Positions 11,300-64,000 of a stretch of DNA of 64,000 bases are shown here, piece after piece (the first letter of the stretch is position 1; the number at the start of each line of letters is the position of its first letter). Location of the stretch: the NCBI GenBank assembly GCA_021372055.1, contig JAJFVB010000240.1, positions 505-64,504 on the forward strand, read 5' to 3'. The stretch is from Desulfobacteraceae bacterium. GTDB lineage: Bacteria > Desulfobacterota > Syntrophobacteria > Syntrophobacterales > Syntrophobacteraceae. A program made the translations under genes and the position numbers. The notes under the pieces are model-generated. The model ran no database searches, was not told the DNA's origin, and saw nothing but the letters and a program-made list of their open reading frames with translations.

Positions 11300-11703
11300 A
11301 CGAGACCTCTCTGCTGGTTTGGTCAACGAAACAGTACCTCGGAGCGAATATTCCCGGTATTCTAATACAATATTGTCGCCGAATGCACCGGGAAAAGTTT
11401 TCCCCGAGACCATCCGTTACAGTCCATGTGGGTCCACCCGGTTTTTTGCTTTGATTCATTGAGCCAATATCGGTAAGATTCCGTCGATTGAGGGAGCCGA
11501 AAAGCGGGAGAATTATCCCGGCAGACTTTTCATCAATGGGGCAATATATTCGTCTGAGCGTGCCCGCGGGATTCGGCGGTACGGGCCGGCATGAAAAAGG
11601 TTTACCGGTTTTTGCAGCCGGGGCCTTTTGCGCCAATGAAGGGGTTTTGCGCTCGGAGGATTCGGCCAGGAAACGCTAACATATTGTAGAGAAAGATATT
11701 TTC

Positions 11704-13131
11704 ATGATTATTCCGGTGATTTTGTCCGGCGGCATTGGTTCCCGTTTGTGGCCTCTTTCCCGCGAGCACCTGCCAAAGCAGCTCATGCCCCTCATGGGGG
11801 GCACGTATTCCCTTTTTCAGGAAACGCTCATCCGGCTGTCGGCTATTGCGCAAGTATTGCCTCCCATCATCGTATGCAACGAGAGCCATCGTTTCATGGC
11901 CGCGGCACAAATGCAGGACATCCAGCTTGCGCACACCGAGATCATCCTCGAACCGGTCGGGAGGAACACCTGCCCGGCCATAGCCGTGGCGGCGCTGGCA
12001 GCCTCGAAAGACGAGGCCGATCCGACCCTGCTGGTTGTGCCCGCAGACCATCTGATCCAGAATGGCGCTCTTTTCGCGTCCATCGTCTCAGCCGCCGAAC
12101 CCCTGGCCGACTCCGGAAACATAATCACCTTCGGCATCGTTCCCGACCGCCCGGAGACCGGCTTCGGTTATATCCGCCGCAGCGGGGTCATCGACTCGAA
12201 CGGCTTGCCGGACGGCGCATACCGCGTCAGTGAGTTTTGCGAAAAGCCCGAGCACGAAAGAGCCCTCGCCTATGTGGAATCGAAGGAGTACTTCTGGAAC
12301 AGCGGTATGTTCATGTTCCGGGCGTCCGAATTCCTGAGGGAACTCAAGCAGTATTCTCCCGAAATCCTCAAGGCGTGCTCGGAGTCTTACAAGAAAGCCA
12401 GACGGGACCTGGATTTCACGCGACTCGATGAAAACACCTTTACCTCCAACCCGAGCATCTCGATCGATTACGCTCTCATGGAAAAAACGCCCAACGCGGT
12501 GGTGATCCCCATGGATGTGGGTTGGAGCGACGTCGGAAGCTGGCTCTCGCTCCACGAGGTCTGCCGGAAGGACAACGATCACAACGTGCTCACCGGGGAC
12601 ATCGTGACGGAGGATGTCCAGAACTGCTACATCCGTTCCGAAAACAGACTTGTCGCCGCCCTGGGCATCAAGGATCAGATCATCATCGAGACCAAGGACG
12701 CCATCCTCGTATCGTCCCTGGACCGTTCCCAGGATGTGAAGACCATCGTCAACAAGCTGAAGAAAAATCAGCGCGAGGAGGCTCTGTTCCACGCCCAGAC
12801 CTATCGCCCCTGGGGATCCTATGAAAACATCGACTTCGGCGACCGGTTCAAGGTAAAGCGCATCACCGTCAACCCGGGCGCATGCCTTTCGCTCCAGATG
12901 CACTATCACAGGGCGGAACACTGGGTCGTGGTCAGGGGAACCGCCAAGATCACCAAGGGTGACGAAGTGTTCCTCCTGAACGAGGACCAGAGTACCTATA
13001 TCCCGTACGGCACGAATCACAGGCTCGAAAATCCGGGAAAAATTCCCCTGGAACTCATTGAGGTTCAGTCGGGAAGCTACCTCGGCGAAGACGATATTTT
13101 CCGTTTCGAGGACAATTACGGCCGCTGCTAG
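11704..13131 (+). CDS. manC: Bifunctional mannose-1-phosphate guanylyltransferase / mannose-6-phosphate isomerase (type II PMI cupin)
   Basis: MIIPVILSGGIGSRLWPLSRE nucleotidyltransferase start. C-terminal cupin RPWGSYENI ... SLQMHYHRAEHWVVV ... NHRLENPG. 475 aa, typical of ManC/CpsB/XanB. Confidence 0.9.
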   Translation: MIIPVILSGGIGSRLWPLSREHLPKQLMPLMGGTYSLFQETLIRLSAIAQVLPPIIVCNESHRFMAAAQMQDIQLAHTEIILEPVGRNTCPAIAVAALAASKDEADPTLLVVPADHLIQNGALFASIVSAAEPLADSGNIITFGIVPDRPETGFGYIRRSGVIDSNGLPDGAYRVSEFCEKPEHERALAYVESKEYFWNSGMFMFRASEFLRELKQYSPEILKACSESYKKARRDLDFTRLDENTFTSNPSISIDYALMEKTPNAVVIPMDVGWSDVGSWLSLHEVCRKDNDHNVLTGDIVTEDVQNCYIRSENRLVAALGIKDQIIIETKDAILVSSLDRSQDVKTIVNKLKKNQREEALFHAQTYRPWGSYENIDFGDRFKVKRITVNPGACLSLQMHYHRAEHWVVVRGTAKITKGDEVFLLNEDQSTYIPYGTNHRLENPGKIPLELIEVQSGSYLGEDDIFRFEDNYGRC

Positions 13132-13156
13132 AACGCGTCCGGCGGCAGTCCGAGCG

Positions 13157-13471
13157 CTACTTGAGCCTGACGACCGGATTGTGCTGCTTCTGATGGATCA
13201 TCAGGCTGTTGCGGTCAAGCAACCCCAGTATCCTGCCCCTATCGAGCCTGTAGGTCTCTTCCTGGACGGTCCGCTCGTAGAGATTCCGGACATAGGCGAG
13301 GTTTGCATTGAGCGTGGAAGCCTCGCCTGCCGTCAGATCCCCCCGCGCCAGGCGGAACCTGATCGCGTTCTGCTGCTCGGCAAGCTTTTCCGAAATCCCA
13401 TCCTGGGAAAAAGCCGTTCCGAAAAACGCTAGAGATAGGACAAGAAAGAGTATCGCGCTTCGAATCTGCAT
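13157..13471 (-). CDS. Small secreted hypothetical protein
   Basis: Internal ATG at 13471 gives MQIRSAILFLVLSLAFFGTAFSQ, a signal peptide. Convergent with manC. Confidence 0.5.
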   Translation of the reverse strand: MQIRSAILFLVLSLAFFGTAFSQDGISEKLAEQQNAIRFRLARGDLTAGEASTLNANLAYVRNLYERTVQEETYRLDRGRILGLLDRNSLMIHQKQHNPVVRLK

Positions 13472-14338
13472 CCTGCACCCCTGCTGTCCCGTATGGAATG
13501 CGAGTGAACTCCGGGCAGGCTCGACGGGAGCCCGTCCGGATTCCACAGTGCGCTTGAAGATACTACCAAACTGACGTTTTTGAAAGCGGGAGCGCTTTGT
13601 TCGACAAGCGTTTCCCGAATCCCCGCATCAGCTGCCCGAAGCCTCCCCGCCCGGGAACAACAGGATCGTGCCTCCAATTTCAGGACCGTGAGCGAATTAG
13701 CCTTTCACAGCATCTGCTGTTGTGGGATAATGGGCTCCAATCACCCCACCCATTCCATGAAACATGGCCCATCCTCAGGGCTTCACGGCGAAATCACGCC
13801 AAACGCCGTGGTGTGAAGACGGATTGTGTTAAGAAAAACCTCTGAACGGCCGATAGACTTGTCAGCCAAAGCTTTCGGGTTGATGTAATCGGGTTTGCGG
13901 AGCTTTGAGAATCCAAAGATTACAAAAATTCGCCACATGCGATCAGTTTAAGAGATGATCCGGTATACTATTCAACATCTCATCATAATCAGGGTGCAGC
14001 ATGGTAAACACAATCTGTAAATGGCTCGAAAACGCTGTCTGCCGGATCTGCGGCCTCGGCGACAGCATTCTGGATAGGATTTTCAAAAGGTCCCCCACCA
14101 CCAGGGATGCTTTTCTCGACGGGACGGGAAAGAAGGAACCCTCCAAGGAAGGGACTCTGCGCAACTCAAGAAGCGAATCCGTCCTGTTCCAGGGTTGAGT
14201 GGCGCTGGAGGACGGATGCATGATCATCCCGGTTCCGTTTATTCCCGGTGCGGTGCGCGCCGCCGCCTGCGGAAAGAAGGGATGACGGTCCTTCGCCCTT
14301 TTGTCTGATGTGCCTTTCCGAACCCGGCACACTTTCGT

Positions 14339-50607: not shown

Positions 50608-51363
50608 CTATTTGCCCGGCATTACAGCCTTGAACAGGTGCTTGACCTGCGAGAAGCCCATCTTCCGGCGCAGCACACCCAGCTGATCCTGGAGAGGAAT
50701 CTTCTTGGGGCACATGTCTTCGCAGCCGAGGAGTCCGAGACATCCGAAGATGCCGTCCTCGTTTCCGACGACCTCGAAATACTGGTCATTCGTCCTTTCA
50801 TCACGCGGGTCCATCATGAACCGAGCCACGCGGTTGAAAGCAGTGGCCCCCATGAAGCCCTCGGGCAGCATGTTGGCCTTGCCGCACGCCGCAACGCAGC
50901 AGCCGCATTCAATGCACCGTTCGAGTTCGTAAATCTCGTCGGCCAGCGCATTATCCATGCGTTCTTCCGGAGCATGCGGCTCGAAAGTCTTCCTCGTGTG
51001 AACCCACGACTGAACTTTTTCGTTCATGCCGCGGAACCACGTTCCGGTGTCGACCGAAAGATCCCCGATCAGCTTGAAGACCGGCATGGGCATCAGGGTG
51101 ATTTCGCTGGGCAGCTTTTTCGTTTTCGTGTGGCATGCAAGATCGGGCTTCCCATTGATCATCATGGCACAGGATCCGCAAATACCGGCGCGACACATGA
51201 AGTCGAACATGAGTGCGGGGTCCTGCTCTTCCCGGATGCGGTTGAGAGCAATATAAAGGGTCATTGCGTCGGTTTCCTCGAGGTAAAACGTATCCATGCG
51301 CGGAACCGCAGCCGTGTCCTCCGGGTTAAATCTAAAAATATTGAACTTAAGTGTCCGTCCCAT
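50608..51363 (-). CDS. sdhB: Succinate dehydrogenase/fumarate reductase iron-sulfur subunit
   Basis: 2Fe-2S motif CRAGICGSC. CIECGCCVAAC and CLGLLGCEDMCP cluster motifs. 251 aa. Confidence 0.9.
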   Translation of the reverse strand: MGRTLKFNIFRFNPEDTAAVPRMDTFYLEETDAMTLYIALNRIREEQDPALMFDFMCRAGICGSCAMMINGKPDLACHTKTKKLPSEITLMPMPVFKLIGDLSVDTGTWFRGMNEKVQSWVHTRKTFEPHAPEERMDNALADEIYELERCIECGCCVAACGKANMLPEGFMGATAFNRVARFMMDPRDERTNDQYFEVVGNEDGIFGCLGLLGCEDMCPKKIPLQDQLGVLRRKMGFSQVKHLFKAVMPGK

Positions 51364-51383
51364 TCAAACACCTCTCGCTTCGC

Positions 51384-53243
51384 TTAGTTGGTTTCCGGCT
51401 TTGGAGTACAAATCTCGGGATCCTCGGTGCAGATGATCTTCGATGAACCGTATCCTCTTTCACCAGGCGGAAGTTCCCAAACCTTGGAAGGCTTTTCGTA
51501 TTCCAGCGTTGGGAGCGTATCGTCTTCGCTCTTCCAGTAGGCCAGGGTGCGCTTCAACCAGTCTCTGTCATTGCGTTCCGGATAGTCTTCGCGAGCATGC
51601 GCTCCGCGGCTTTCCGTACGCATCAACGCTCCATACGCCGTACACAGCGCAAGCCGGACCATTCCGGGCATACGAAGCGCCATGGAAAGTTCCGGGTTGG
51701 CTCCAACCGGTTTCGACGAGAGCCCGATCCTCTTGGCCCTGTCGTAGATCACCTGGAGATTGTCGACGGCCTTCTGCAGTTCCGCCCCGGTCCGGAAGAC
51801 GGCAACCCGATCCATGAGTTCGTCACCCATGGCAGCCTTGATCTCATAGACATTTTCTTTGCCGTTCTTGCCGCTGACGAGGTTGTTGATTTTTTCCTGC
51901 TGCTTCTTGACCTCGGCCTGGATAATGGAGGTCTTGAAATCCACTTCATAGCCCTGCAGGAATTCGGATATCTTCTCACCGACGATTCTTCCAGCCACGA
52001 TCGTTTCAGCCAAGGAGTTGCCACCAAGACGGTTGAACCCGTGCATATCCCAGCACGCAGCCTCGCCCGCAGCGTACAAGCCCTTGAGCCCGTAAGCCGC
52101 GCCGTCCTTGTTGGTGCGAACACCACCCATGCTGTAATGGTGGGCGGGACGGACCGGGATCATCTGCGTAATCGGGTCGACATCGAGGAACTCGTTGCAG
52201 ATTTCCTCGACTTCGCGAAGCTTCGTCTTGATGTGATGAGCGCCCAGATGGCGGATGTCCAACCACAGGTGTGGACCATAGGGGCTCGGAACGCCCTTCC
52301 CAAGGCGCATATGATGAGTCATCCAGCGGGAAACAACGTCGCGCGACGCAAGTTCCTGTTTGCCCGGCTCATAGATGTGCATGAACCGTTCCCCATTGAC
52401 GTCTTTGAGTGTGCCGCCGTCACCACGGCAGCCTTCCGTTACGAGGATGTTGGTCGGCACAATACCGGTCGGATGGAACTGCACAGCTTCCGGGTTTCCG
52501 AAGGGAACGATCCCGGTATCGAGCGTAACAATCGTGCCGTCGCCGTTATTGATCACGCAATTTGTCGTTTCGCGATATATCCGGCCGTATCCGCCTGTTG
52601 CGATCAGGGTCGCCTTGGCGAGATAGACACGCAGCTTGCCGGTCTTCAGGCAGCGTGCGACAACGCCCATGCAAGTCTGGCCGTCATGGATGAGCGACAG
52701 CACTTCCACACGGTCGTGGACGGTTACACCCAGATGGACGACTTCGTTGTCCATGGTGAAAAGAAGCGTGTGGCCGGTGCCATCAGAGGTGTAGCACGTC
52801 CGCCATTTGGCCGTGCCGCCGAAATCGCGGGCCGTGATCATGCCCTCCATTTCCCTCTTTTCAATCTTTTCGTATTCCTTGCCCGCTTTGTAGTAAATGC
52901 CCTTTCCAGGCACCACGCGGTTCCAGGGAATACCCCAGAAGGCCATTTCCCGCACCGCGACCGGCGCCGTCTCCGCAAAAAGACGCGCGACTTCCTGGTC
53001 GCAACCCCAGTCGGAGCCTTTGACCGTATCGGCAAAGTGCACATCAGGGCAGTCGCCTTCGCCTTTACAGCAGTTTCCAAGCGATGCCTGCATGCCGCCC
53101 TGGGCGGCCGAAGAGTGGGAACGTCTCGGCGGAACAATGCTGAGACAGATGGTCTCAAAACCTGCTGAGGCCGCTGCAACAGCCACTCGCTCGCCTGCCA
53201 AGCCCGCTCCGACGCACAAGAGATCAGTATAGAAGGTATCCAA
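51384..53243 (-). CDS. sdhA: Succinate dehydrogenase/fumarate reductase flavoprotein subunit
   Basis: FAD-binding LLCVGAGLAGERVA. HSSAAQGG (covalent FAD His). HPTG. RGAHARED near the C-terminus. TTG start 7 nt after AGGAG. Confidence 0.9.
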   Translation of the reverse strand: MDTFYTDLLCVGAGLAGERVAVAAASAGFETICLSIVPPRRSHSSAAQGGMQASLGNCCKGEGDCPDVHFADTVKGSDWGCDQEVARLFAETAPVAVREMAFWGIPWNRVVPGKGIYYKAGKEYEKIEKREMEGMITARDFGGTAKWRTCYTSDGTGHTLLFTMDNEVVHLGVTVHDRVEVLSLIHDGQTCMGVVARCLKTGKLRVYLAKATLIATGGYGRIYRETTNCVINNGDGTIVTLDTGIVPFGNPEAVQFHPTGIVPTNILVTEGCRGDGGTLKDVNGERFMHIYEPGKQELASRDVVSRWMTHHMRLGKGVPSPYGPHLWLDIRHLGAHHIKTKLREVEEICNEFLDVDPITQMIPVRPAHHYSMGGVRTNKDGAAYGLKGLYAAGEAACWDMHGFNRLGGNSLAETIVAGRIVGEKISEFLQGYEVDFKTSIIQAEVKKQQEKINNLVSGKNGKENVYEIKAAMGDELMDRVAVFRTGAELQKAVDNLQVIYDRAKRIGLSSKPVGANPELSMALRMPGMVRLALCTAYGALMRTESRGAHAREDYPERNDRDWLKRTLAYWKSEDDTLPTLEYEKPSKVWELPPGERGYGSSKIICTEDPEICTPKPETN

Positions 53244-53254
53244 TTTTCAGCTCC

Positions 53255-53920
53255 TTACATTGCTTTGACTAAGAAGAAGAAGGTGAACAACGTCACTAAA
53301 CCAATCCCAATCATGATCACAGTGAGCTTGTTCTCGAAGCCGTGCAGCACTTTTCGATTGGCCCTCTTGATGTAGCCCCATTTTACGCCTATCCTGTAGA
53401 TGCCGATGCCGACATGCAGCTCAATCATCGGGAGCAGGAAAAGGTAGAAAAGAAGCCACCATCCGCCCTGAATCCTATGGGCGCTCTTTGCCGCGGTGAT
53501 CGGCAGGTCGGTAAGGACCGTCCACATGTGGATGCAGCCCATAATCAGGATAATGAATGCGGTTACCGCCTGAATTATCCACAGCCAGGTATCGGTGTGG
53601 TTGAAATTGACGGTATGCCGCCACATCGCCTTCTGCTCACGGGCGCGGAAGGGGAGCTTGCGGGCGGCCAGCACAAAATGGAACACCATTGTCAGAGCAA
53701 TCAGCGGGCCACCGAGCTGTGCCATATACGTGGCTTCGAAGAAGTAGGCAATGAGGTTCATTACCCGGCCTCCTCCGAGGTCAAGGTTGACACTAGCTAC
53801 CAGAATCATATGGCACCACATGAACGCCACGAGCCCGACTCCGGTAAGCATTTGGAGGAAATCCAAATACGCCTCAGTTCGTACAGGTTCTACTCGAGCA
53901 ATTGTTTGATCCGCCATCAT
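53255..53920 (-). CDS. sdhC: Succinate dehydrogenase/fumarate reductase cytochrome b subunit (single large 5-TM subunit)
   Basis: 221 aa with five hydrophobic helices and conserved His residues (WCHMIL, MVFHFV, CIHMW, IELHVGIG). First gene of the C-A-B order. AGGAG RBS. Confidence 0.8.
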   Translation of the reverse strand: MMADQTIARVEPVRTEAYLDFLQMLTGVGLVAFMWCHMILVASVNLDLGGGRVMNLIAYFFEATYMAQLGGPLIALTMVFHFVLAARKLPFRAREQKAMWRHTVNFNHTDTWLWIIQAVTAFIILIMGCIHMWTVLTDLPITAAKSAHRIQGGWWLLFYLFLLPMIELHVGIGIYRIGVKWGYIKRANRKVLHGFENKLTVIMIGIGLVTLFTFFFLVKAM

Positions 53921-55021: not shown

Positions 55022-55714
55022 ATGCTTGTAAAGAACTGGATGACTAAGAACGTTGTCACGATAGAGCAGGACGACTCGATGCAACAGGCCTTGGCCCTCA
55101 TGAAGGAAAACGACATAGGAGTGCTTCCGGTAATGAATAGTGGGGTCATGGTCGGCATTGTTTCAGACACCGATCTGAAACGCGCTTCGGCATCCGATGC
55201 AACCATGCTCGACACGCATGAGTTGCTCTACCTGATCTCCAAGATCAAAATAAGCGAAATCATGACCAAAAAAGTCATCACCGTGCCGGAAGACTTCACC
55301 GTCGAGGAAACAGCCCAGGTGATGATGGAACACAACATATCGGCTGTCCCCGTTACGGATCAAAACGGCAAGCTCGTAGGGATCATCACCAGGCACGATC
55401 TGTTCAAGATTTTGATTTCCCTGAGCGGCCTCGGCAAACGGGGAATCCAGTTCGCTTTTCTCATCGACGACGTCTCCGGCTCCATAAAGAGCCTTACCGA
55501 TGTGATCCGCCGCTACGACGGCCGGATAGCCAGCATCCTGAGTTCCTACGAATATGCCCCTCCCGGCAAGCGGATCGTCTACATCCGGATCTATGAAGTC
55601 GACAGGTCCAGGCTCCCGGAACTTATCCAGGAATTCCGGGATAAGGGCACCCTGATCTACCTTGTCGATCACCGCCAGAACAAGCGAAAGATATACCACG
55701 ACATCATGGCCTGA
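55022..55714 (+). CDS. CBS-pair domain protein with C-terminal ACT-like domain (AcuB-like)
   Basis: MLVKNWMTKNVVTIEQDDSMQQAL...GVLPV and a second CBS repeat IMTKKVITVPEDFTVEE...SAVPV. GGAGG RBS. Confidence 0.8.
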   Translation: MLVKNWMTKNVVTIEQDDSMQQALALMKENDIGVLPVMNSGVMVGIVSDTDLKRASASDATMLDTHELLYLISKIKISEIMTKKVITVPEDFTVEETAQVMMEHNISAVPVTDQNGKLVGIITRHDLFKILISLSGLGKRGIQFAFLIDDVSGSIKSLTDVIRRYDGRIASILSSYEYAPPGKRIVYIRIYEVDRSRLPELIQEFRDKGTLIYLVDHRQNKRKIYHDIMA

Positions 55715-55834: not shown

Positions 55835-56227
55835 TCACGCAAGTATCCCCCGAATGGTAACAAGGAGTTCTTCGGCCTCCGGCGGCTTTTCGATGTATGC
55901 GGCCGGTTCCGGGATCTTGACCCCTTCGAATTCATCCACGACTTTCTGGGAATGGAAAAAGGTCTTCTTGGACAGCGCCGACACCATAATGACCGGGATG
56001 TTCCTCATTTCCGGGTCCTTTTTCACTTCGCGGTACATGAAGATTCCGCTCTCCCTGGGCATCATGATATCCATGATTATCAAAGCCGGCTTTTCCTTTC
56101 GCGCCATCTCCAGCCCCTCACGCCCGTCCTTGGCCGTGACCGGCTTAAAGCCGCTGGTCTCCAGGAGCGTTGTCATAAACACTCGGATATCCTGCTCGTC
56201 ATCGACTACCAGTATTTTTTTCACCAT
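55835..56227 (-). CDS. Stand-alone response regulator receiver (CheY-like)
   Basis: MVKKILVVDDEQDIR, LIIMDIMMP, VIMVSAL, YIEKP. Complete REC signature with no output domain. Confidence 0.85.
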   Translation of the reverse strand: MVKKILVVDDEQDIRVFMTTLLETSGFKPVTAKDGREGLEMARKEKPALIIMDIMMPRESGIFMYREVKKDPEMRNIPVIMVSALSKKTFFHSQKVVDEFEGVKIPEPAAYIEKPPEAEELLVTIRGILA

Positions 56228-56359: not shown

Positions 56360-56857
56360 TCACCCCCGGATCGGAAGCGTAAACTGGTTCAGGGGATTGC
56401 GGATCGCCATAACATGGCAGTGGGCATACCTCGAAACCCGCGCCACAGTGCTTCCCCGTTCTTCCCGCTCCGAATCCGAATTGCCCAGAGCACCCATGAC
56501 GATCAGGTCGATCTCGTTTTTTTTGGCGTAACGTATGATCTCGACATCGGGAGCCCCGCATGCCACGAGGAACTCGTACCGCTCATAGCCCTGCATTCGC
56601 CCCTCGTAGGCGTTTTTGAGCCTGCCCAGCGCCTCTTCGGCGATTTTCGGATCGTAGAATGCCTGCCCGTTCATATCGCCGCCCTTGGGGATGTCTTCAT
56701 CCACGACATGTTTTGCGTACTGAAACGGAGAATGAGGCACATGCAGGATGGACAGCTTCGCGCCGTATTTCTTTGCAAGGCCAAGCGCGTGCAGGAAGGC
56801 GATGTTGGCGTCATCGGAAAAGTCCGTACAGAAAAGAATTTTCTTATACTCAAACAT
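56360..56857 (-). CDS. Universal stress protein (UspA family)
   Basis: MFEYKKILFCTDFSDDANIAF. C-terminal ATP-binding-like IVMGALGNSDSER...GSTVARVSRYAHCHVMAI. The start overlaps the upstream stop by 8 nt. Confidence 0.85.
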   Translation of the reverse strand: MFEYKKILFCTDFSDDANIAFLHALGLAKKYGAKLSILHVPHSPFQYAKHVVDEDIPKGGDMNGQAFYDPKIAEEALGRLKNAYEGRMQGYERYEFLVACGAPDVEIIRYAKKNEIDLIVMGALGNSDSEREERGSTVARVSRYAHCHVMAIRNPLNQFTLPIRG

Positions 56858-58073
56858 TGTTCTCTCCTTTCGTTGCATCAGGCGACCGCCACGTCCGACA
56901 TCGCACAGAGTTCTCCTTTCGCCCTTTCCCGCACAGGGCGATATCCCCTGCAGGAAGTCTGACTGCAAATGTTGCCCCTTTGCCCTTTTCCGAGAAGACC
57001 GACACCTCTCCTCCGTGCTCGAGAACGATTTTCTGAACGATCATGAGGCCGAGTCCGGTGCCTCTGGTGCCTTTCGTACTGAAGAATGCCTTGAAGATCT
57101 TTTCCTTTATTTCTTCGGAAAGCCCGCAGCCCGAATCGATCACCCGGTACTCGACTCCACCGCCCTCGATGAGGGCGGTGCTGAGGACGACCTCCTTGGG
57201 GTTCCCCGAATTTTCAACGTCAAGGCAGGCATCGAAGGCATTCCCGAGAAGATTCAAAAGGCAGCAATGAATCGCGTCCGGGTCCAGGCTGATTTCCTTG
57301 ATACGTTCATCGAGCCGGACCGTCAGGTTGATCCCGCACTCACGGGCACGCTCCTGCATGAGCAGATGCAGATCGGATGCAACCCGGTTCGGATTTATCC
57401 TCCGGTATTCCGGTTCCCGTTCCTTGGAGTAGTTCAGCAGATCCAGCGCAAGGTTTTTTATCTTTTCGACATTGCCCTTTACCATCGCCCAGCCCTGGGT
57501 GAGATACTTTTGACTGCCCAGTTCCATGCCCTTTTCCACAACGAAGATGCCGCCGTTGAGTCCGCCTATGATGTTTTTGATCGCATGAGCCAGGGTTGCT
57601 ACCGTCTGGCCTATGGCGGCCAGCCTTTCCGTTTCGATCAGCCGCTGCGATTTTTCGAGGACGAGCTGCTCGAGCCCCTGCGTGTATTCGCGGAGCTTTT
57701 CCTTCATCCAGATCCGTTCCCGGGCCCTTTGGAGCGCAATCCGGAGCGCCGCGTCGTTAATCGGTTTGGTAATGAAATCGACCGCTTCGAACTGGATGCT
57801 CCTGATTGCAAGTTCCAGGTCCCCGTGCCCCGTGACCATGATGACCTCGGTTTCAGGCATCTCTTTTTTGATCCTTTGCAGCAGTTCGATCCCGTCCATT
57901 CCCGGCATTTTGACATCCGTCAGGACAACCGGGGGACGATGCTTCCGGACGATATCGAGCGCCTCTTCGCCCGAGGCGGCCGTCAGAACCCGGTAGCCCC
58001 AGTCGGCGAGCGAAATGCCGAGGACTTTCCGAATCCCCTCCTCATCGTCCACGAGCAGAATAGGGTTTATCAT
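56850..58073 (-). CDS. Hybrid response regulator-histidine kinase (REC - HisKA - HATPase_c)
   Basis: ILLVDDEEGIRK, VVLTDVKMPGMDG, VIMVTGH, FITKP (REC). H-box ATLAHAIKNIIGGL. LLNLLGNAFDA, DSGCGL, GTGLGL. ATGA overlap with the upstream kinase. Confidence 0.85.
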   Translation of the reverse strand: MINPILLVDDEEGIRKVLGISLADWGYRVLTAASGEEALDIVRKHRPPVVLTDVKMPGMDGIELLQRIKKEMPETEVIMVTGHGDLELAIRSIQFEAVDFITKPINDAALRIALQRARERIWMKEKLREYTQGLEQLVLEKSQRLIETERLAAIGQTVATLAHAIKNIIGGLNGGIFVVEKGMELGSQKYLTQGWAMVKGNVEKIKNLALDLLNYSKEREPEYRRINPNRVASDLHLLMQERARECGINLTVRLDERIKEISLDPDAIHCCLLNLLGNAFDACLDVENSGNPKEVVLSTALIEGGGVEYRVIDSGCGLSEEIKEKIFKAFFSTKGTRGTGLGLMIVQKIVLEHGGEVSVFSEKGKGATFAVRLPAGDIALCGKGRKENSVRCRTWRSPDATKGENNV

Positions 58074-60346
58074 CAGGCCTCACCCGCGGCGGGAAATCGA
58101 ATGATGAATGTAGCGCCTTCGTTTTCCCTGGTCTCGACTTCTATCGTTCCTTCATAGTCCTGCACGATGCCGTAGCTTATCGAAAGACCCAAACCGGTTC
58201 CGCGGCCAACCCGCTTCGTGGTGAAAAACGGTTCGAAAATCTTGTCGAGCACCGATTTGGAAATGCCCGTCCCGGTATCCGACACCTCCACGCGAACCTT
58301 GCCCCTATCGAGCAGGGTTTTCAATGACACCCGCTTTTCAATGTCGCCGTTGCACATCTTTTCGCACCGATCCTCGATGGCGTCCCGGGCGTTGATCAGC
58401 AGGTTTATGAAGACCTGCTCGAGCCTGTTGCTGCTGGCGAGAACCGGCGGCAGATCCGGCGCCAGGTTCTTTTCCACTTCGATCTTCCTCAGCTTCAGCT
58501 GCTGCATGAAGATCTGGAGGGCCTTCTCCAGGGCCTCGTTTACGTCCACCCTGTCCCTTTCCACCTCCGATTTGCGTCCGAATTCCCGGAGGTGGTTGAT
58601 AATGCAGGACGCCCTGTCCACATGGCTGTCGATCTCCGCCGCCATTGTCTTGAGGACGTCTTCCCTGATGGGCTCGCTCCTGCTGATCTTGCGCACCAGG
58701 AAACTGCTCGCCGTCTTCATCACGGAAAGCGGCTGGTTGAGCTCATGGGCTATCGCGGTCGCCATCTCTCCCAGGGTGGCCATTTTGCTCGCCTGGATCA
58801 GGTGCTGCTCGGCCATGAGCCGTTTGGTGATATCGCTCGTGGTGACGAGAAACGCATCCCTGCCGAGATACTCCGAAGGAGAGATGCGGATATTCACATA
58901 GATGGCCCGTCCGTCCTTGGTCACGTGCCGCACATTGGTGAGCGCGTCGGATCTTTTGATGTTCTGCGTGACTTCACCGTTCTGCTCGCCTTCGAGAATG
59001 TCCCGGAAATGCTCGCCCAAAAGTTCCGACTTTTCGTAACCGTAGACGGCAAAGACCATTTCGTTGCAGTCGAGTATTTTGAGTTCACGATCGAGAACGA
59101 AGAGTGGATTCGGGATATTGTTGAAAATTTCCCTGTATTTCTTTTCCGATTTCACGATTTCTTCTTCGAGCGCCTTGCGTTCGGTGACATCGACGCTCAT
59201 TTCCATCACGGCGCTGATTTCCCCGCGACTGTCCTTGAGAGGCGAAGTCCTGCATATCCATGTCGATGCCTTCCCGTCGGCGGTGGTGCCGGCTTCCTCA
59301 CTGAGATGGGACTCTCCATCGGCGAAGGTCTTCAGAACCGGGCAGTATTGACAGACCTCTTTTCTGCCCTTGTAGATCTCGTAGCAGCGGCCGCCGGGCC
59401 GAGGATCGAAAGCGCGCGCGAACTCGCGGTTGTAGCGGACAATCGTGAGTTCCCGGTCCTGCACGGTGATGTAGCACGGCACCTGCTCGAAGAGTTCCTG
59501 GTACTCGTTTCTCTGCCGGTTCAGCTCTTCCTGTTTTTCGTCGATCTGCCCCGCCATGGCGTCGATCGCGTGGGCGAGCTGACCTATCTCGTTTACCCAG
59601 TGAGGACGGAATTCATGCCGGTACTCACCCTCGGCGATATTGCGCGTCCACGCGATCAGTTTCCTGATGGGACGGTTGACGAAAAACAACAGGAACCCGA
59701 CGATTATCGCGGAGGTTGCAAGAAAGCTGATCACCGCCAGGATTATGATTCTTTCTTCGTATGTCCGTATCGCCCTGTCGGTTTCCTTCAGGGAAACGAC
59801 CACGTCGAGCGCCCCGAGGACCGTCTTGTCCGGAGGATGGACGTGGCAGGCCTCCGACGCGCAGCTCGGCTCGTTGTAGATCGGGCTGATGATGCCGAGC
59901 TGCCTGTGCCCGTCGGGCGACCGGAGGATACGCGTTCTGGCGGATGCGGCCAGGTCCTTCAGGGGCGGGTCCGTCCTGTGGCAGATGTCACAGGCTTCCG
60001 CCTTTATGCTGGTTGTCTGGTCGACCTCGCCCGGAAGGCTCGAGAACTTGATCTGCCCCTGCTTGTTGTAGATACGGATGTTGTCGATACCCTCCTGCGA
60101 TCCGATATTCCTGGTTATTTCATCGAGATCGTTACGCGAATTGAGCATCATGGCGTAATGGGTGCCCAGCCTGATCGTATTGCCCAGCCTGTCGCAAGAC
60201 TCGATGATGGATTGCAGCGTGCTCTCTTTCTGATAGTTGATATTGAAATAGGCCCAGATGAAGATGCTGACGGACAGCACCAGTCCGACCAGAACGATCA
60301 GCCTGGAGATCAGGCTCCTGTAGATCCCGACTGCACCTTCGAACAT
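58073..60346 (-). CDS. Membrane sensor histidine kinase (periplasmic Cys-motif domain - HAMP - 2x PAS - HisKA - HATPase_c)
   Basis: Two TM helices flank a ~170-aa extracytoplasmic domain containing CDICH (CXXCH) and CASEACH. HAMP (NIAEGEY...EIGQLAHAID). PAS repeats. H-box TAIAHELNQPL. INLLINARDA, DTGTGI, GTGLGLS. Confidence 0.85.
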   Translation of the reverse strand: MFEGAVGIYRSLISRLIVLVGLVLSVSIFIWAYFNINYQKESTLQSIIESCDRLGNTIRLGTHYAMMLNSRNDLDEITRNIGSQEGIDNIRIYNKQGQIKFSSLPGEVDQTTSIKAEACDICHRTDPPLKDLAASARTRILRSPDGHRQLGIISPIYNEPSCASEACHVHPPDKTVLGALDVVVSLKETDRAIRTYEERIIILAVISFLATSAIIVGFLLFFVNRPIRKLIAWTRNIAEGEYRHEFRPHWVNEIGQLAHAIDAMAGQIDEKQEELNRQRNEYQELFEQVPCYITVQDRELTIVRYNREFARAFDPRPGGRCYEIYKGRKEVCQYCPVLKTFADGESHLSEEAGTTADGKASTWICRTSPLKDSRGEISAVMEMSVDVTERKALEEEIVKSEKKYREIFNNIPNPLFVLDRELKILDCNEMVFAVYGYEKSELLGEHFRDILEGEQNGEVTQNIKRSDALTNVRHVTKDGRAIYVNIRISPSEYLGRDAFLVTTSDITKRLMAEQHLIQASKMATLGEMATAIAHELNQPLSVMKTASSFLVRKISRSEPIREDVLKTMAAEIDSHVDRASCIINHLREFGRKSEVERDRVDVNEALEKALQIFMQQLKLRKIEVEKNLAPDLPPVLASSNRLEQVFINLLINARDAIEDRCEKMCNGDIEKRVSLKTLLDRGKVRVEVSDTGTGISKSVLDKIFEPFFTTKRVGRGTGLGLSISYGIVQDYEGTIEVETRENEGATFIIRFPAAGEA

Positions 60347-60384
60347 GGCCCGCCCTCTCTAAACCGGTGATGCCGGGTGCTCAT

Positions 60385-60473
60385 GTAACAAAGAACGCTT
60401 TTGAAAAACGTGGGAAACTGCGCCCCACTCACATCCCTCGCCGCTACGCGGTTCATTTTGGCGCTTGCGGGGG
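60385..60473 (+). repeat. Partial copy (F) of the modular repeat family
   Basis: Sequence: gtaacaaagaacgcttttgaaaaacgtgggaaactgcgccccactcacatccctcgccgctacgcggttcattttggcgcttgcggggg. The left module matches copies D and E. The tcattttggcgcttgcgg module matches copies C and E, with near matches in A and B. Confidence 0.75.
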
Positions 60474-60477
60474 ATTC

Positions 60478-60659
60478 AGGGCTTGTCCGTAAATAAAACC
60501 TTTGCGCTCGCATCCGGCTTTTTGCCTGCTTCGACCGCTCCTCAATCGCAAAATTCTCGACGTAGCCCAACTACACCTGCGGTTTTGCTCAATCGTTGCA
60601 GCCAAATCAGACTCAATATCCGGCGCGAATCCCTAAAAGCCTATTTACGGACAAGCCCT
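60478..60659. repeat. 182-nt element bounded by a perfect 18-bp inverted repeat
   Basis: agggcttgtccgtaaata (60478-60495) and tatttacggacaagccct (60642-60659) are exact reverse complements. The right arm touches the stop codon of the HdrA-like gene. Confidence 0.8.
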
Positions 60660-63600
60660 TATTCCAGTGCCGCATCCAACATCGCCATTACCCGCCGGTC
60701 GCCGTAGCCCCGGACGACCGAAGCGCTGTTCGGGCAGACGGCGGCGCATGCCCCGCAGCCCTGGCAGGCCAGTTCGTCAACCTCGATAATGTCCTCCTCG
60801 TCGTTGCGCTTCCGTGCATCGTAGGGACAGGCGGCGATGCAGCTTTCGCAAAGGGAGCACAGGCTGTGCCGCACCTCGGCCGTCACGTTCGCGGCAGGAA
60901 CGCGCTCCCGGCTGATAAGCGCTAGCGCGCGCTGCGCCGCGGCCTGCGCCATGGCTACAGACTCCGCAACGGACCTGGGCGAGTGCGCCACGCCGGCCAG
61001 AAACACCCCGCGTTTCCGGGAATTGACCGGCAGCCACTTGTACTCGGCCTCCTGGAAAAACCCGTCTTCATTGACCTCTATGCCGAAGATCTCAGCAAGG
61101 CCCTTGCCGTTGCCCGGCGCGATGCCGGTGCTCAAGACGAGGAGGTCGGACTCGAACACGATTTCGCGCCCGAGGATGGGATCCATTGCGCAGAGCCGAA
61201 CCTTGCCCGCTTCGCCCAGGGAGCATTCCGGTTTTCGGTCGGGCGAATACCGTATGAACATAATCCCGGCCCGCCTTGCCTGCGTGTAATATGTTTCCAG
61301 AAAACCGTAGGTCATGATGTCTCTGTAGAAGATGCAGACGTCCAGGTCGGGATTCGCCGCTTTGAGGCGAAGGGCGTTCTTGAGCGCCGTGGCGCAGCAG
61401 ACCCTGCTGCAGTAGTTCCTTCCCTCCTCGCGCGAACCGACGCACTGAATCATGGCAACGGCCTTGAGCCCGGCGGGGTCGAGCCGGCCGTCGGCCAGAC
61501 GATCTTCCAGCTCGAGCTGCGTAAGGATCGAATCGCTTTTCCCGTAAAGGTAGGCCTCGGTTCGGGCCTCGCCTCCACCGCTGGCAAGAATCACGGCCCC
61601 GTGCTCCACAACCGCGGGATCGTTGCCCGACTGATCCAACGTTGTCAGGAAGTTGCCGCCCAACCGCTCCGAGTGCACAACGGAAGCACTTTTGCGAAGG
61701 GTGATCCGGGGATGGCTTTCCACCCGCGCAATTGTTTCTTCCAGCAGCCCCTTTGCGGAAAGTCCCTCGATGGTGTGGTGGATTCGCAGAGCAAGACCTC
61801 CGAGATTTTCCGTCTTTTCGACCAGATCGACCTCGAAGCCCTGATCCGCTATCGAAAGGGCCGCGGTCATTCCCGCGATGCCTCCTCCCACCACCAGGGC
61901 GCGCTGAACCACAGGCTGATCGGACCGGACGACGGGCTCCGCGGAAAGAAGCCCTTGCAGCGAAATCTTGAGAGCGGCCTCCATGCGCTTCACGGCATAA
62001 TCCCCACTGTCGGGGGCAGCGCCCAAAGCCGCGGAACGGATATCCACCACGTCCATGAGGCTTCTAGGAAGCCCGATCCGGCGGCTGAGTTCCGCCAGCT
62101 TGCCCCCGTGCATGCACGGAACGCAGGCTCCGATGACCACCGCGTTGGCGCCGCTTTTTTCCAGGGCCTCGGACATGGTGTCCCATCCCGACTTCGTACA
62201 GATTCTTTCGATTTCCAGGACGCGGAGCCCCGGAGCCCACTCCGGCAACGCCGCGCGCAGAGCGGCGACCTCTCCGGCGAGCGAATTCCCGCAGGCGCAC
62301 AGGGCAAGCGCGACCCGTGGAATCTCCCTGGAAACGTCGCGCAATGCCGCTTCCGGCCGCTCTGCGGCCATCAGGCTTCCGCCCTTGGAATGAATCAGCT
62401 TCGATGCTTCGCAGGAGGCGGCTCCGGCCTGAATCACGGATTCCGAGATATCTTTGAACCCGGAGAAGGAACCGCCCGAGAAAACGCCGTTCCTGCTGGT
62501 CCGGCCCGGAGCAAAACCGTCCGTCCGGCAAAATCCCCAATTGTTTCGTTCGATTCCTGCAATGCTCGCCAGCACTTCGGAATCGGCGGGAGGTCTTTGC
62601 CCCACCGCCAGAACGACGAGATCGAAAACCTCATCGCGTTCCCGGCTCTCGGCGTCGGCATAGTGGAGCCGCAGACGGCCGCCTTCGTGAGGTTCGACCG
62701 AGTGGACGCGGCTTCTCACGAACCGCACCCCCGCTTCCCCCTCCGCGGCGTCGCGGTAGCGCTGGAAATCCCTGCCGAAAGTCCGCATGTCCATGTAGAA
62801 GATGGCGGTGTCCACGGCCCCCCCGCTCCTGTCCTTTGCGAGAAGCGCCTCCTTGATCGAAAACATGCAGCAAACCGACGAGCAATAATCCGCCTTTTCC
62901 TGGAGGTTCCTGGACCCGACACACTGCAGCCAGGCGATCTTCCCGACCGGTTGGCCGTCGGGACGGAGCAGCCGCCCTCCGTTGGGGCCGGTGCCGCTGA
63001 TCAGCCTCTCGAACTCGATGCTCGTGACGACATTGGGCAGGACCTTGTACTCATACGTGTTCGAACCCTCGCACGGGTCCGCGAACCCGGATCCCGCCGC
63101 CATGATCACGGCGCCGACCTGGACCGTGCGCTCGGGAGACTTGACCGTGCCGTCGTATTGCTGGACCACTTTCGCTATCATCGCGTTGATGTCAAAAGGC
63201 TTCATCAGGTAGTCGAGCGCGCCGATCTTGAGCGCCTCCACGGCGTTTTCGACCGTCGCGTAGGCCGTCATCATGATCACCGGCAGGCTCTCCCGCATCT
63301 GCTTTGCGACCTTGAGGACCTCGACGCCGTCCATGCCGGGCATTTTGATGTCGAGCAGCATGAGGCCGTATTCGTTGCGGGCGAGCAGTTCCACGGCCTC
63401 TTTTCCCGACCCCGCCATGTCGACGCTGAACCCCTCCGTCAGGAGCCATTCCTTGAGCGAGTCCCGAACGACCAGTTCGTCGTCCACCACCAGAACGCGA
63501 AACGCCCTCCGGGCTTCCAATCCGAGATCTATCGCCCCGGTCGGGCAGGCCTTCTCGCATTCGCCGCACCGGTTGCACGCGCGCGCGTCGATCACAAAGC

Positions 63601-64000
63601 AATTGGGTATGCTGTGAGGTACGGGCAGGTGGACTGCCTTCCTGCGGGTCAGGCCCGCATTGAATTCGTCAGGGACCTCGATGGGACAGATTTCCGCGCA
63701 TTTTCCGCAGCCGATGCATTTTGCCGGATCTACGCTCGACGGGATGGTCGTCAGCGTAACGCGAAAATTGCCGGGTTCGCCCTCGATGCCGACCATCTCG
63801 GTCCCGAGCATCAACTCGATGTTTTCGTGGTACAACCCTCTCCTCAGGCAGAACTGGGATGAGGCATCCCGGTCCGTCATGGGGAGCATCCTGCACATGC
63901 CGCAGTGATCGGTGGGAAACTGATAATCCAGCTGGCTCAGTATTCCCCCCAAACCCGGCGACTTGTCTATCAGGTACACACGGTGATTCATCTCAGCCAG
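60659..64000 (-). CDS. Tandem HdrA-like FAD/FeS oxidoreductase with inserted response-regulator receiver domain (5' end outside the window)
   Basis: Continuous reading frame of at least 1110 codons, open to the window end. Module 1: GLGGILSQLDYQFPTDHCGMC, ferredoxin insert CIGCGKCAEICP and CNRCGECEKACP, then REC (RVLVVDDE, LMLLDIKMPGMDG, IMMTAY, YLMKPF), then the fold resumes (CVGSRN...YCSSVCC). Next comes an HdrA N-domain-like Cys segment (LALCACGNS...GACVPCMHG). Module 2: VVGGGIAGMTAAL, CVGSREEGRNYCSRVCC, C-terminal CSLCESCIAACP and CQGCGACAAVCP. Confidence 0.85.
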   Translation of the reverse strand: MAEMNHRVYLIDKSPGLGGILSQLDYQFPTDHCGMCRMLPMTDRDASSQFCLRRGLYHENIELMLGTEMVGIEGEPGNFRVTLTTIPSSVDPAKCIGCGKCAEICPIEVPDEFNAGLTRRKAVHLPVPHSIPNCFVIDARACNRCGECEKACPTGAIDLGLEARRAFRVLVVDDELVVRDSLKEWLLTEGFSVDMAGSGKEAVELLARNEYGLMLLDIKMPGMDGVEVLKVAKQMRESLPVIMMTAYATVENAVEALKIGALDYLMKPFDINAMIAKVVQQYDGTVKSPERTVQVGAVIMAAGSGFADPCEGSNTYEYKVLPNVVTSIEFERLISGTGPNGGRLLRPDGQPVGKIAWLQCVGSRNLQEKADYCSSVCCMFSIKEALLAKDRSGGAVDTAIFYMDMRTFGRDFQRYRDAAEGEAGVRFVRSRVHSVEPHEGGRLRLHYADAESRERDEVFDLVVLAVGQRPPADSEVLASIAGIERNNWGFCRTDGFAPGRTSRNGVFSGGSFSGFKDISESVIQAGAASCEASKLIHSKGGSLMAAERPEAALRDVSREIPRVALALCACGNSLAGEVAALRAALPEWAPGLRVLEIERICTKSGWDTMSEALEKSGANAVVIGACVPCMHGGKLAELSRRIGLPRSLMDVVDIRSAALGAAPDSGDYAVKRMEAALKISLQGLLSAEPVVRSDQPVVQRALVVGGGIAGMTAALSIADQGFEVDLVEKTENLGGLALRIHHTIEGLSAKGLLEETIARVESHPRITLRKSASVVHSERLGGNFLTTLDQSGNDPAVVEHGAVILASGGGEARTEAYLYGKSDSILTQLELEDRLADGRLDPAGLKAVAMIQCVGSREEGRNYCSRVCCATALKNALRLKAANPDLDVCIFYRDIMTYGFLETYYTQARRAGIMFIRYSPDRKPECSLGEAGKVRLCAMDPILGREIVFESDLLVLSTGIAPGNGKGLAEIFGIEVNEDGFFQEAEYKWLPVNSRKRGVFLAGVAHSPRSVAESVAMAQAAAQRALALISRERVPAANVTAEVRHSLCSLCESCIAACPYDARKRNDEEDIIEVDELACQGCGACAAVCPNSASVVRGYGDRRVMAMLDAALE

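Follow-up and report, generated by a model that had tools for sequence, protein, structure and literature searches.

A response-regulator receiver domain nested within a tandem HdrA-like oxidoreductase of Desulfobacterota

Here, we analyzed a gene at one edge of a 64,000-nucleotide stretch of Desulfobacteraceae bacterium DNA (assembly GCA_021372055.1, contig JAJFVB010000240.1, positions 505 to 64,504; hereafter, the window). It encodes two fused modules related to HdrA of heterodisulfide reductase (Hdr)-type complexes, and we refer to its product as the tandem HdrA. A response-regulator receiver (REC) domain is inserted within the first module, at the point where the chain leaves an inserted ferredoxin domain and re-enters the FAD domain. 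The feature is real, widespread, and, in the literature searched, apparently undescribed, and it combines a fused HdrA with an enzymatic-output response regulator in a nested topology. Judging from the sequence, we assign a probability of roughly 55% to a reading in which phosphorylation of the predicted acceptor residue, D240, shifts the ferredoxin insert, partner docking, or the oligomeric state of the enzyme and thereby tunes electron routing.

The minus-strand frame is continuous from its stop codon (60659–60661) to the window edge at 64000, and its translation is 100% identical to a public protein of 1136 amino acids, P0001, annotated as an "FAD-dependent oxidoreductase." An earlier, sequence-only reading of this DNA had proposed a single uninterrupted frame for both HdrA modules, and the match to P0001 upholds it. 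The public protein also supplies the N terminus, 23 residues that lie outside the window and hold the greater part of the FAD motif, GAGISG; the ATG at 63991 in the open reading frame listing is internal and is not the true start. Residue numbering follows P0001 throughout, so that D240 is D217 of the window translation. The anatomy of the protein was established with phmmer against PDB chains, taking methanogen HdrA (8rvu) as reference, and comprises the following features.

60659..64000, minus strand: tandem HdrA-REC-HdrA gene, clipped by the window edge; product identical to P0001
63740..64000, minus strand: first part of the module 1 FAD domain (thioredoxin-reductase-like; residues 24–110 in the window), matching the 8rvu chain from residue 154 onwards; DHCGMC is the equivalent of HdrA Cys197
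63527..63739, minus strand: inserted ferredoxin domain (residues 111–181) with two CX2CX2CX3CP motifs, predicted to hold two [4Fe-4S] clusters; cysteines invariant
63146..63499, minus strand: REC domain (residues 191–308), from the Pfam envelope (63167–63496) and the predicted secondary structure
63350..63352, minus strand: codon of the predicted phospho-acceptor Asp, D240; Asp in 74/76 loci and 60/60 sequences
62390..63133, minus strand: remainder of the module 1 FAD domain (residues 313–560) with a CVGSR...C..CC [4Fe-4S] motif; C383, C396, C400, and C401 invariant
61910..62332, minus strand: HdrA N-terminal domain of module 2 (residues 580–720); C591, C593, C624, and C649 invariant in alignment A1
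60917..61900, minus strand: FAD domain of module 2 (residues 724–1051), Pyr_redox_2, matching sHdrA 6tjr (E 1e-32), without inserted ferredoxin and without DCSMC
60662..60892, minus strand: C-terminal ferredoxin domain (residues 1060–1136), two predicted [4Fe-4S] clusters, from the profile and the 8rvu alignment

A receiver domain of ~115 residues had been read by eye at about 63158–63502, and the profile search bears this out. Response_reg (PF00072) scored 106 bits (E 1.6e-30; curated Pfam cut-off, 30.2 bits) over positions 1–110 of the 111-position model, at window residues 169–278. The motifs VLVVDDE, LMLLDIKMPGMDG, IMMTAY, and YLMKPF are all present in the frame, and D196, D197, D240, T268, Y287, and K290 are the equivalents of CheY D12, D13, D57, T87, Y106, and K109. 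An AlphaFold2 (AF2) model built from a 60-sequence alignment (pLDDT 77.7, pTM 0.77) places a complete (βα)5 fold in the REC segment with a pLDDT of ~80–90, with strands (E) and helices (H) at E191-195/H199-211, E215-219/H223-231, E236-240/H247-258, E264-268/H273-282, and E284-289/H294-308. The nearest NCBIfam matches of the domain were the NtrC, AtoC, and ZraR models, over ~110 residues and far under their cut-offs. Sigma54_activat and HTH_8 were absent from the tandem HdrA in the Pfam scan, which places it outside the NtrC family.

The six phospho-switch residues are invariant in 60/60 homologs and intact in 68 of the 76 species-level loci described below, and they are retained even in 50%-identity representatives that share just 42–50% identity with the window protein. 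Within the intact set, conservation is highest in the active-site loops (0.94–1.0), followed by α4 (0.91) and α1 (0.79), and falls to 0.36–0.51 in the linkers. Overall, conservation of the REC domain (66% mean identity) equals that of the catalytic domains. This pattern of residue conservation suggests a phosphorylation-competent receiver.

The connector that leads from the ferredoxin insert back to the FAD domain measures ~6 residues in solved HdrA (8rvu), compared with 131 here, and REC-less sister proteins (37–49% identity) align with a clean gap of ~125 amino acids between "CPTxAIDL" and "VGAVILA." Both comparisons agree with the sequence-only reading, which had placed the insertion where methanogen HdrA has only a short linker. 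Because the sisters show a clean gap at exactly this point, we regard the REC domain as having been inserted precisely, and the tandem HdrAs that carry it as a sub-clade of their own.

The distribution of the insertion was followed in three surveys. Among the best 120 protein clusters at 90% identity, PF00072 was found in 120/120 (57–69% identical, ~1135–1160 amino acids), in agreement with a family-specific REC HMM. A genome scan limited to one genome per species returned >580 relatives, of which the best 80 are full-length (42–68% identity); among translated species-level loci, the REC insert was present in 76/76, across three orders, with 132–137 amino acids between the flanks. Carriers among the best 80 include Syntrophobacterales, many genera of Desulfobacterales, an Olavius symbiont, and metagenome-assembled genomes of the Desulfovibrionales type, as well as closed chromosomes of 3–7 Mb. 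The cultured isolate Desulfoferrobacter suflitae also has a REC-bearing tandem HdrA. Finally, of the best 150 representatives at 50% identity, drawn from 1.84 billion proteins, 15 carried REC and 135 did not; 87 of the latter are tandem HdrAs of 900–1100 amino acids, and those of ~1000–1020 amino acids are the nearest REC-less relatives of the window protein. Syntrophobacter fumaroxidans did not turn up in a second protein search.

This recurrence bears directly on whether the fusion could be an artefact, that is, a response-regulator gene joined to HdrA genes by mis-assembly, a frameshift, or annotation. The sole caution in that direction is that the window gene is clipped at the end of a metagenome-type contig, and we found nothing else in its support. 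The same architecture in 120/120 clusters and 76 loci from independent assemblies, closed chromosomes, and a cultured isolate speaks against it, as does the position of the insert, which interrupts one structural domain whose flanks align to the two halves of a single HdrA fold. We therefore give an artefact practically no weight.

Across the two modules, all the domains of HdrA can be recognized. Query residues 8–181 aligned in phmmer with 8rvu chain residues 154–317 (the first FAD half and the ferredoxin insert), residues 313–457 with 324–467 (the remaining FAD domain), residues 580–751 with 8–181 (the HdrA N-terminal cluster domain and the beginning of the second FAD domain), and residues 961–1135 with 480–653 (the C-terminal ferredoxin domain). 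Pfam reported Response_reg, four Fer4 motifs, and Pyr_redox_2 on the window protein, and a Foldseek search with the whole AF2 model recovered only HdrA structures (5ODC and 8RVU, E ~1e-38). The four HdrA domains never stand together in one module. Module 1 has the DHCGMC motif, in which C56 and C59 are invariant in the homolog alignments, and the inserted ferredoxin domain, and it lacks the N- and C-terminal domains. Module 2 has the N- and C-terminal domains, and both the reading of the frame and the 8rvu alignment agree with the earlier observation that it lacks a DCSMC-like motif and a ferredoxin insert. FAD and cluster motifs are invariant in both modules (G12/G14/G17 with C383/C396/C400/C401, and G728/G730/G733 with C876/C887/C891/C892). 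The NCBIfam HdrA and HdrA2 models scored 629, 492, and 467 bits, each over four separate stretches and far below their equivalog cut-offs (1400 or 1300 bits for HdrA and 1100 bits for HdrA2).

On its domain content, the tandem HdrA is thus a single-chain pseudo-heterodimer of two complementary modules. The conserved motifs predict 2 FAD and 7 [4Fe-4S] clusters as cofactors. HdrL, by comparison, combines HdrA and a GltD/NADH-binding domain in one protein (Strittmatter et al. 2009, PMC2702500); a Fer4_20/GltD-type domain was absent from the tandem HdrA in the Pfam scan, so the protein is not an HdrL.

Several individual sequences depart from the common form. In the divergent REC-bearing representative P0126, the CxC cysteines of the module 2 N-terminal domain are missing (alignment A2, columns ~615–625), and the cluster of this domain may have been lost in some lineages. 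Locus L071 (10001–13430) has 11 in-frame stops after residue ~868; it could be a pseudogene, or the stops could stem from a frameshift or from misassembly. At L035 (10001–23012), strong tblastn matches that continue for ~10 kb downstream suggest a second tandem-HdrA paralog. The extra length of L075 was considered as a further inserted domain and turned out to consist of low-complexity loop insertions only.

Variation also affects the receiver itself. In 8 of the 76 loci (L049, L051, L052, L055, L056, L059, L060, and L070; main gene at ~10001–13500 in most), the domain is kept and the acidic pair, and mostly the Thr and Lys as well, are lost (e.g. DPDGFH, HPACIW). These loci are of the Desulfovibrionaceae, Desulfolutivibrio, Desulfocurvus, Desulfohalobiaceae, and Desulfomicrobiaceae types. 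Their degenerate REC shares 25% identity with that of the window protein and scores roughly at the Pfam cut-off, whereas the remaining domains share 50–63%. The surroundings differ as well: within 10 kb, a HAMP-PAS kinase ortholog is found at 40/67 intact-REC loci versus 0/8 degenerate loci, and HdrL at 46/67 versus 0/8, with a canonical 680-residue HdrA upstream in place of HdrL. Because phospho-residues and kinase are missing together, the former appear to be tied to the latter. A separate feature of L051 is a [NiFe] hydrogenase large subunit encoded ~3 kb downstream.

These eight loci are also what recommends a purely structural REC, a scaffold onto which HdrL, MvhD, or an FrhB-like subunit might dock, or which might mediate dimerization, and for which phosphorylation would be irrelevant: they retain a domain of the same length without the acidic pair, Thr, Lys, or a nearby kinase, and in none of the REC-bearing lineages covered by the 76 loci has the domain itself been lost. 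Such a role would leave unexplained why the six residues are invariant in 68/76 loci and in clusters at 42–50% identity, with the active-site loops the most conserved part of the REC. It would also not predict that REC identity collapses to 25% when the residues are lost while that of the rest of the protein does not, a collapse from which we conclude that the constraint in intact lineages is on phospho-chemistry. A purely structural receiver is therefore improbable in our estimate, the least likely of the biological explanations considered here.

Candidate partners for phosphotransfer are encoded directly after the tandem HdrA. The kinases that the sequence-only reading had named at 56850–60346 proved to be conserved operon partners, and four genes, listed below, are 66–76% identical to and collinear with those of a Syntrophobacteraceae locus (L001).

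58073..60346, minus strand: HAMP-PAS-PAS-HisKA-HATPase histidine kinase, 757 aa, candidate phosphodonor; 67% identical collinear ortholog in L001
56850..58073, minus strand: REC-(H-box)-HATPase hybrid kinase, 407 aa; its start and the stop of the kinase before it overlap
56360..56857, minus strand: universal stress protein (Usp), conserved within the signaling sub-cluster; 67% identity to the L001 ortholog
55835..56227, minus strand: stand-alone single-domain REC; 76% identity to the L001 ortholog

The H-box of the 407-residue hybrid, TLAHAIKNII, was seen by eye, and Pfam HisKA gave no match to it; with this H-box, the protein reads as a receiver-regulated kinase, which suggests a multi-step or branched relay. 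Kinase gene ends overlap Hdr gene ends even in loci at 42–43% identity. The genes that precede the tandem HdrA are predicted from orthologous loci only, where the operon reads HdrL-FlpD/MvhD-FrhB/FdhB-like FeS-HdrA(REC)HdrA-HdrC-HdrB-kinase-REC-kinase(-Usp-REC). In these loci, HdrL is a separate gene of 1126 amino acids (a GltD-like NAD(P)H domain plus HdrA) located two to three genes upstream, and a divergent NtrC-type σ54 activator with a PAS kinase is often found upstream as well. Taking the conserved residues and the conserved operon kinases together, the best reading is that the enzyme receives input from a phosphorelay.

The window departs from this order in one respect. No HdrC or HdrB homolog was found within its 64 kb, and a 312-bp gap (60347–60658) separates the tandem HdrA from the kinase. 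HdrC and HdrB follow the tandem HdrA in ~50/67 intact-REC loci, and in every locus without them downstream, an HdrD-like fusion gene (Fer4+CCG) lies upstream of HdrL. There are thus two operon variants, and the window locus probably belongs to the HdrD variant, with its HdrD lying off-window. That the missing HdrC and HdrB mark a different complex is, given the HdrD-like fusion in such loci, probably not the case.

We also asked where the inserted REC came from. An origin from the stand-alone REC of the operon was rejected, since the two share 27–35% identity, compared with 44–50% between the inserted REC and the receiver of the NtrC-type activator. The latter (L001 1114–2466, minus strand; L004 1280–2623, minus strand) is its closest local paralog, and the 44–50% identity is a hint that the two share a kinase or an origin. 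The kinase is likewise no hallmark of REC-bearing enzymes: in REC-less sister operons with a tandem HdrA of ~1015–1030 amino acids (L087 14403–17433, L089 13969–16000, and L088 3–3178), a HAMP-PAS kinase is encoded beside HdrC/B, together with either a stand-alone REC or a REC-kinase.

The composition of the locus can be read in the opposite direction, with the enzyme as a sensor or as a sink for phosphate. How readily its REC gains or loses phosphate would then depend on the redox or occupancy state of Hdr. The enzyme would compete for phosphoryl groups with the single-domain REC, the hybrid kinase, and the NtrC-type activator and so report ferredoxin, NAD(P)H, or disulfide status to the two-component network in control of the operon. 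The rich and branched signaling set (kinase, hybrid, Usp, and REC, with the NtrC-type regulator and its kinase in orthologs) is in keeping with this, the NtrC-type receiver as nearest local paralog is compatible with a shared kinase, and intact phospho-residues fit it as well as they fit gating. Two observations point away from it. The very high conservation of α4 suggests an output interface rather than a passive sink, and the Desulfovibrionales keep the domain after losing the phospho-residues, which indicates a role within the enzyme. We consider a sink unlikely, although not quite as unlikely as a purely structural domain.

Under the reading that we prefer, control of the enzyme through its receiver, phosphotransfer, the donor kinase, and the electron-gating output are steps that we infer. 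The HAMP-PAS kinase and/or the REC-kinase hybrid would phosphorylate D240, and phosphorylation would rearrange the α4-β5-α5 face of the REC. In published structures, the low-potential path runs from FAD to the N-domain cluster completed by Cys197 of the partner and on to the inserted ferredoxin clusters and the acceptor, and conformational mobility of HdrA gates electron transfer (PMC9012536; PMC13518236). The connector that returns from the ferredoxin insert, where the REC sits, would correspond to the exit of this low-potential (ferredoxin) branch, and a single-chain heterodimer would have one such path only, with the REC at its exit hinge. Rearrangement of the REC may thus alter the position or mobility of the ferredoxin insert, the docking of redox partners, or the oligomeric state. 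In sulfate reducers, the complex itself would act as an NAD(P)H/ferredoxin/disulfide oxidoreductase that either bifurcates or confurcates electrons, the disulfide possibly being that of DsrC. The sequence-only reading had placed such gating in the enzyme "rather than transcriptionally," which is too strong: orthologous loci carry the divergent NtrC-type σ54 activator with its own kinase, and for this reason control at both levels is likely, with electron routing possibly tuned post-translationally alongside σ54/NtrC-type transcriptional control.

Several points weigh against this reading. The literature searched contained no biochemistry on REC phosphorylation or on its effect on activity, and no biochemical demonstration of bifurcation or of substrates for a REC-bearing Hdr complex. 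The degenerate loci are probably one clade, in which case their loss of the kinase amounts to one evolutionary event instead of eight and the Fisher p = 0.0014 overstates their independence. Because they keep the domain without its phospho-residues, the REC also has a phosphorylation-independent structural role. Furthermore, the kinases of the REC-less sister operons imply that the two-component association is older than the REC insertion, and the cognate kinase could be the partner of the NtrC-type activator, given the similarity of the two receivers.

Methanogen HdrA, which is the electron-bifurcating subunit in HdrABC-MvhAGD and related complexes (5ODC, 8RVU, and 7BKB), is among the closest known systems. 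All four of its domain types are recognizable in the window protein (phmmer E ~1e-100), including the thioredoxin-reductase-like FAD domain and the CVGSR...C..CC motif that the two share. Methanogen HdrA is a homodimer with a connector of ~6 residues, whereas the window protein spreads the domains over two fused modules and carries the REC in place of the connector; its host, moreover, is a bacterium, and CoM-S-S-CoB is not expected as its substrate.

Fused "heterodimeric" HdrAs have been described in anaerobic methanotrophic archaea (ANME HdrA3/4, HdrA5/6, and HdrA12/13) and in the MetFV-HdrABC-MvhD complex of Moorella thermoacetica, and the complementarity of their N-domain and Cys197 was read as an intramolecular heterodimer (Chadwick et al. 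2022, PMC9012536). The window protein resembles them in having two modules per chain that complement each other in N-domain and Cys197 ligand. Its module order is the opposite of that in ANME HdrA3/4, with Cys197 but no N-domain in the N-terminal module and the N-domain in the C-terminal one. A REC is present in none of the fused HdrAs that have been described (PMC9012536). An insertion in the same peripheral region is known from ANME-1 HdrA, where the ferredoxin insert is itself interrupted by an NfnB-like domain (PMC9012536, S8 Fig legend). Because a whole NfnB-like domain is accommodated there, this part of HdrA tolerates insertions. The ANME-1 insert is a redox module, whereas that of the window protein is a signaling domain.

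In CheB methylesterase, the PleD/WspR diguanylate cyclases, and RpfG, a phosphorylatable N-terminal REC controls the attached enzyme. The REC of the tandem HdrA differs from these in that the fold of a redox enzyme with several cofactors surrounds it, and its putative output is electron transfer, not a hydrolytic or cyclase reaction.

Gene clusters of the same order as the orthologous loci, with kinase and regulator genes adjacent, have been reported as Sfum_0819-0824 of S. fumaroxidans and as locus VIII (hdrL/hdrA4) of Desulfobacterium autotrophicum (Strittmatter et al. 2009, PMC2702500). The HdrABC/HdrL proteins of the former were detected by proteomics only when sulfate was available, and confurcation of electrons toward DsrC was put forward as their role (Sedano-Nunez et al. 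2018, PMC5947623). Orthology of Sfum_0821 is inferred from synteny and taxonomy rather than from its sequence. Both papers call the protein plain HdrA and mention neither a receiver nor a double module (PMC5947623; PMC2702500).

The sequence-only reading did not recognize the architecture as described, and this holds in part. We found no description of an HdrA-REC fusion in the literature searched, with subscription reviews outside the search, and a 2024 preprint on HdrA architectures lists 11 types, none with REC. Fused double HdrAs (PMC9012536), the gene cluster (PMC5947623), and database annotations, on the other hand, already exist. Hundreds of database entries are annotated with Response_reg, and some of them go under the name "response regulator" at NCBI.

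Hdr-like complexes are thought to determine how energetically efficient sulfate reducers and syntrophs are. To our knowledge, and in the literature searched, no HdrA-type enzyme has been reported under direct two-component control. That the tandem HdrA is the first HdrA-type flavo-iron-sulfur enzyme, a class that bifurcates electrons, in which the low-potential branch or the assembly is switched directly through Asp phosphorylation by dedicated kinases of the same operon is a tentative proposal, to which we give somewhat less than an even chance. If true, signal-controlled, post-translational electron routing would lie at the core of how many Desulfobacterota, both sulfate-reducing and syntrophic, conserve energy. 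The topology is rare in any case, with the receiver within the output enzyme and not appended to it. The REC also offers an experimental handle, as D240 variants or BeF3- could trap functional states of the putative bifurcating enzyme, with the clade of degenerate pseudo-receivers as a natural, built-in control. The PAS and HAMP inputs of the kinase may in turn help to reveal the physiological signal behind electron routing.

Just past the signaling genes of the window, two further minus- and plus-strand features were noted.

55022–55714, plus strand: CBS-pair protein, between the stand-alone REC and the Sdh-like genes
50608–53920, minus strand: SdhC/SdhA/SdhB-like succinate dehydrogenase or fumarate reductase operon

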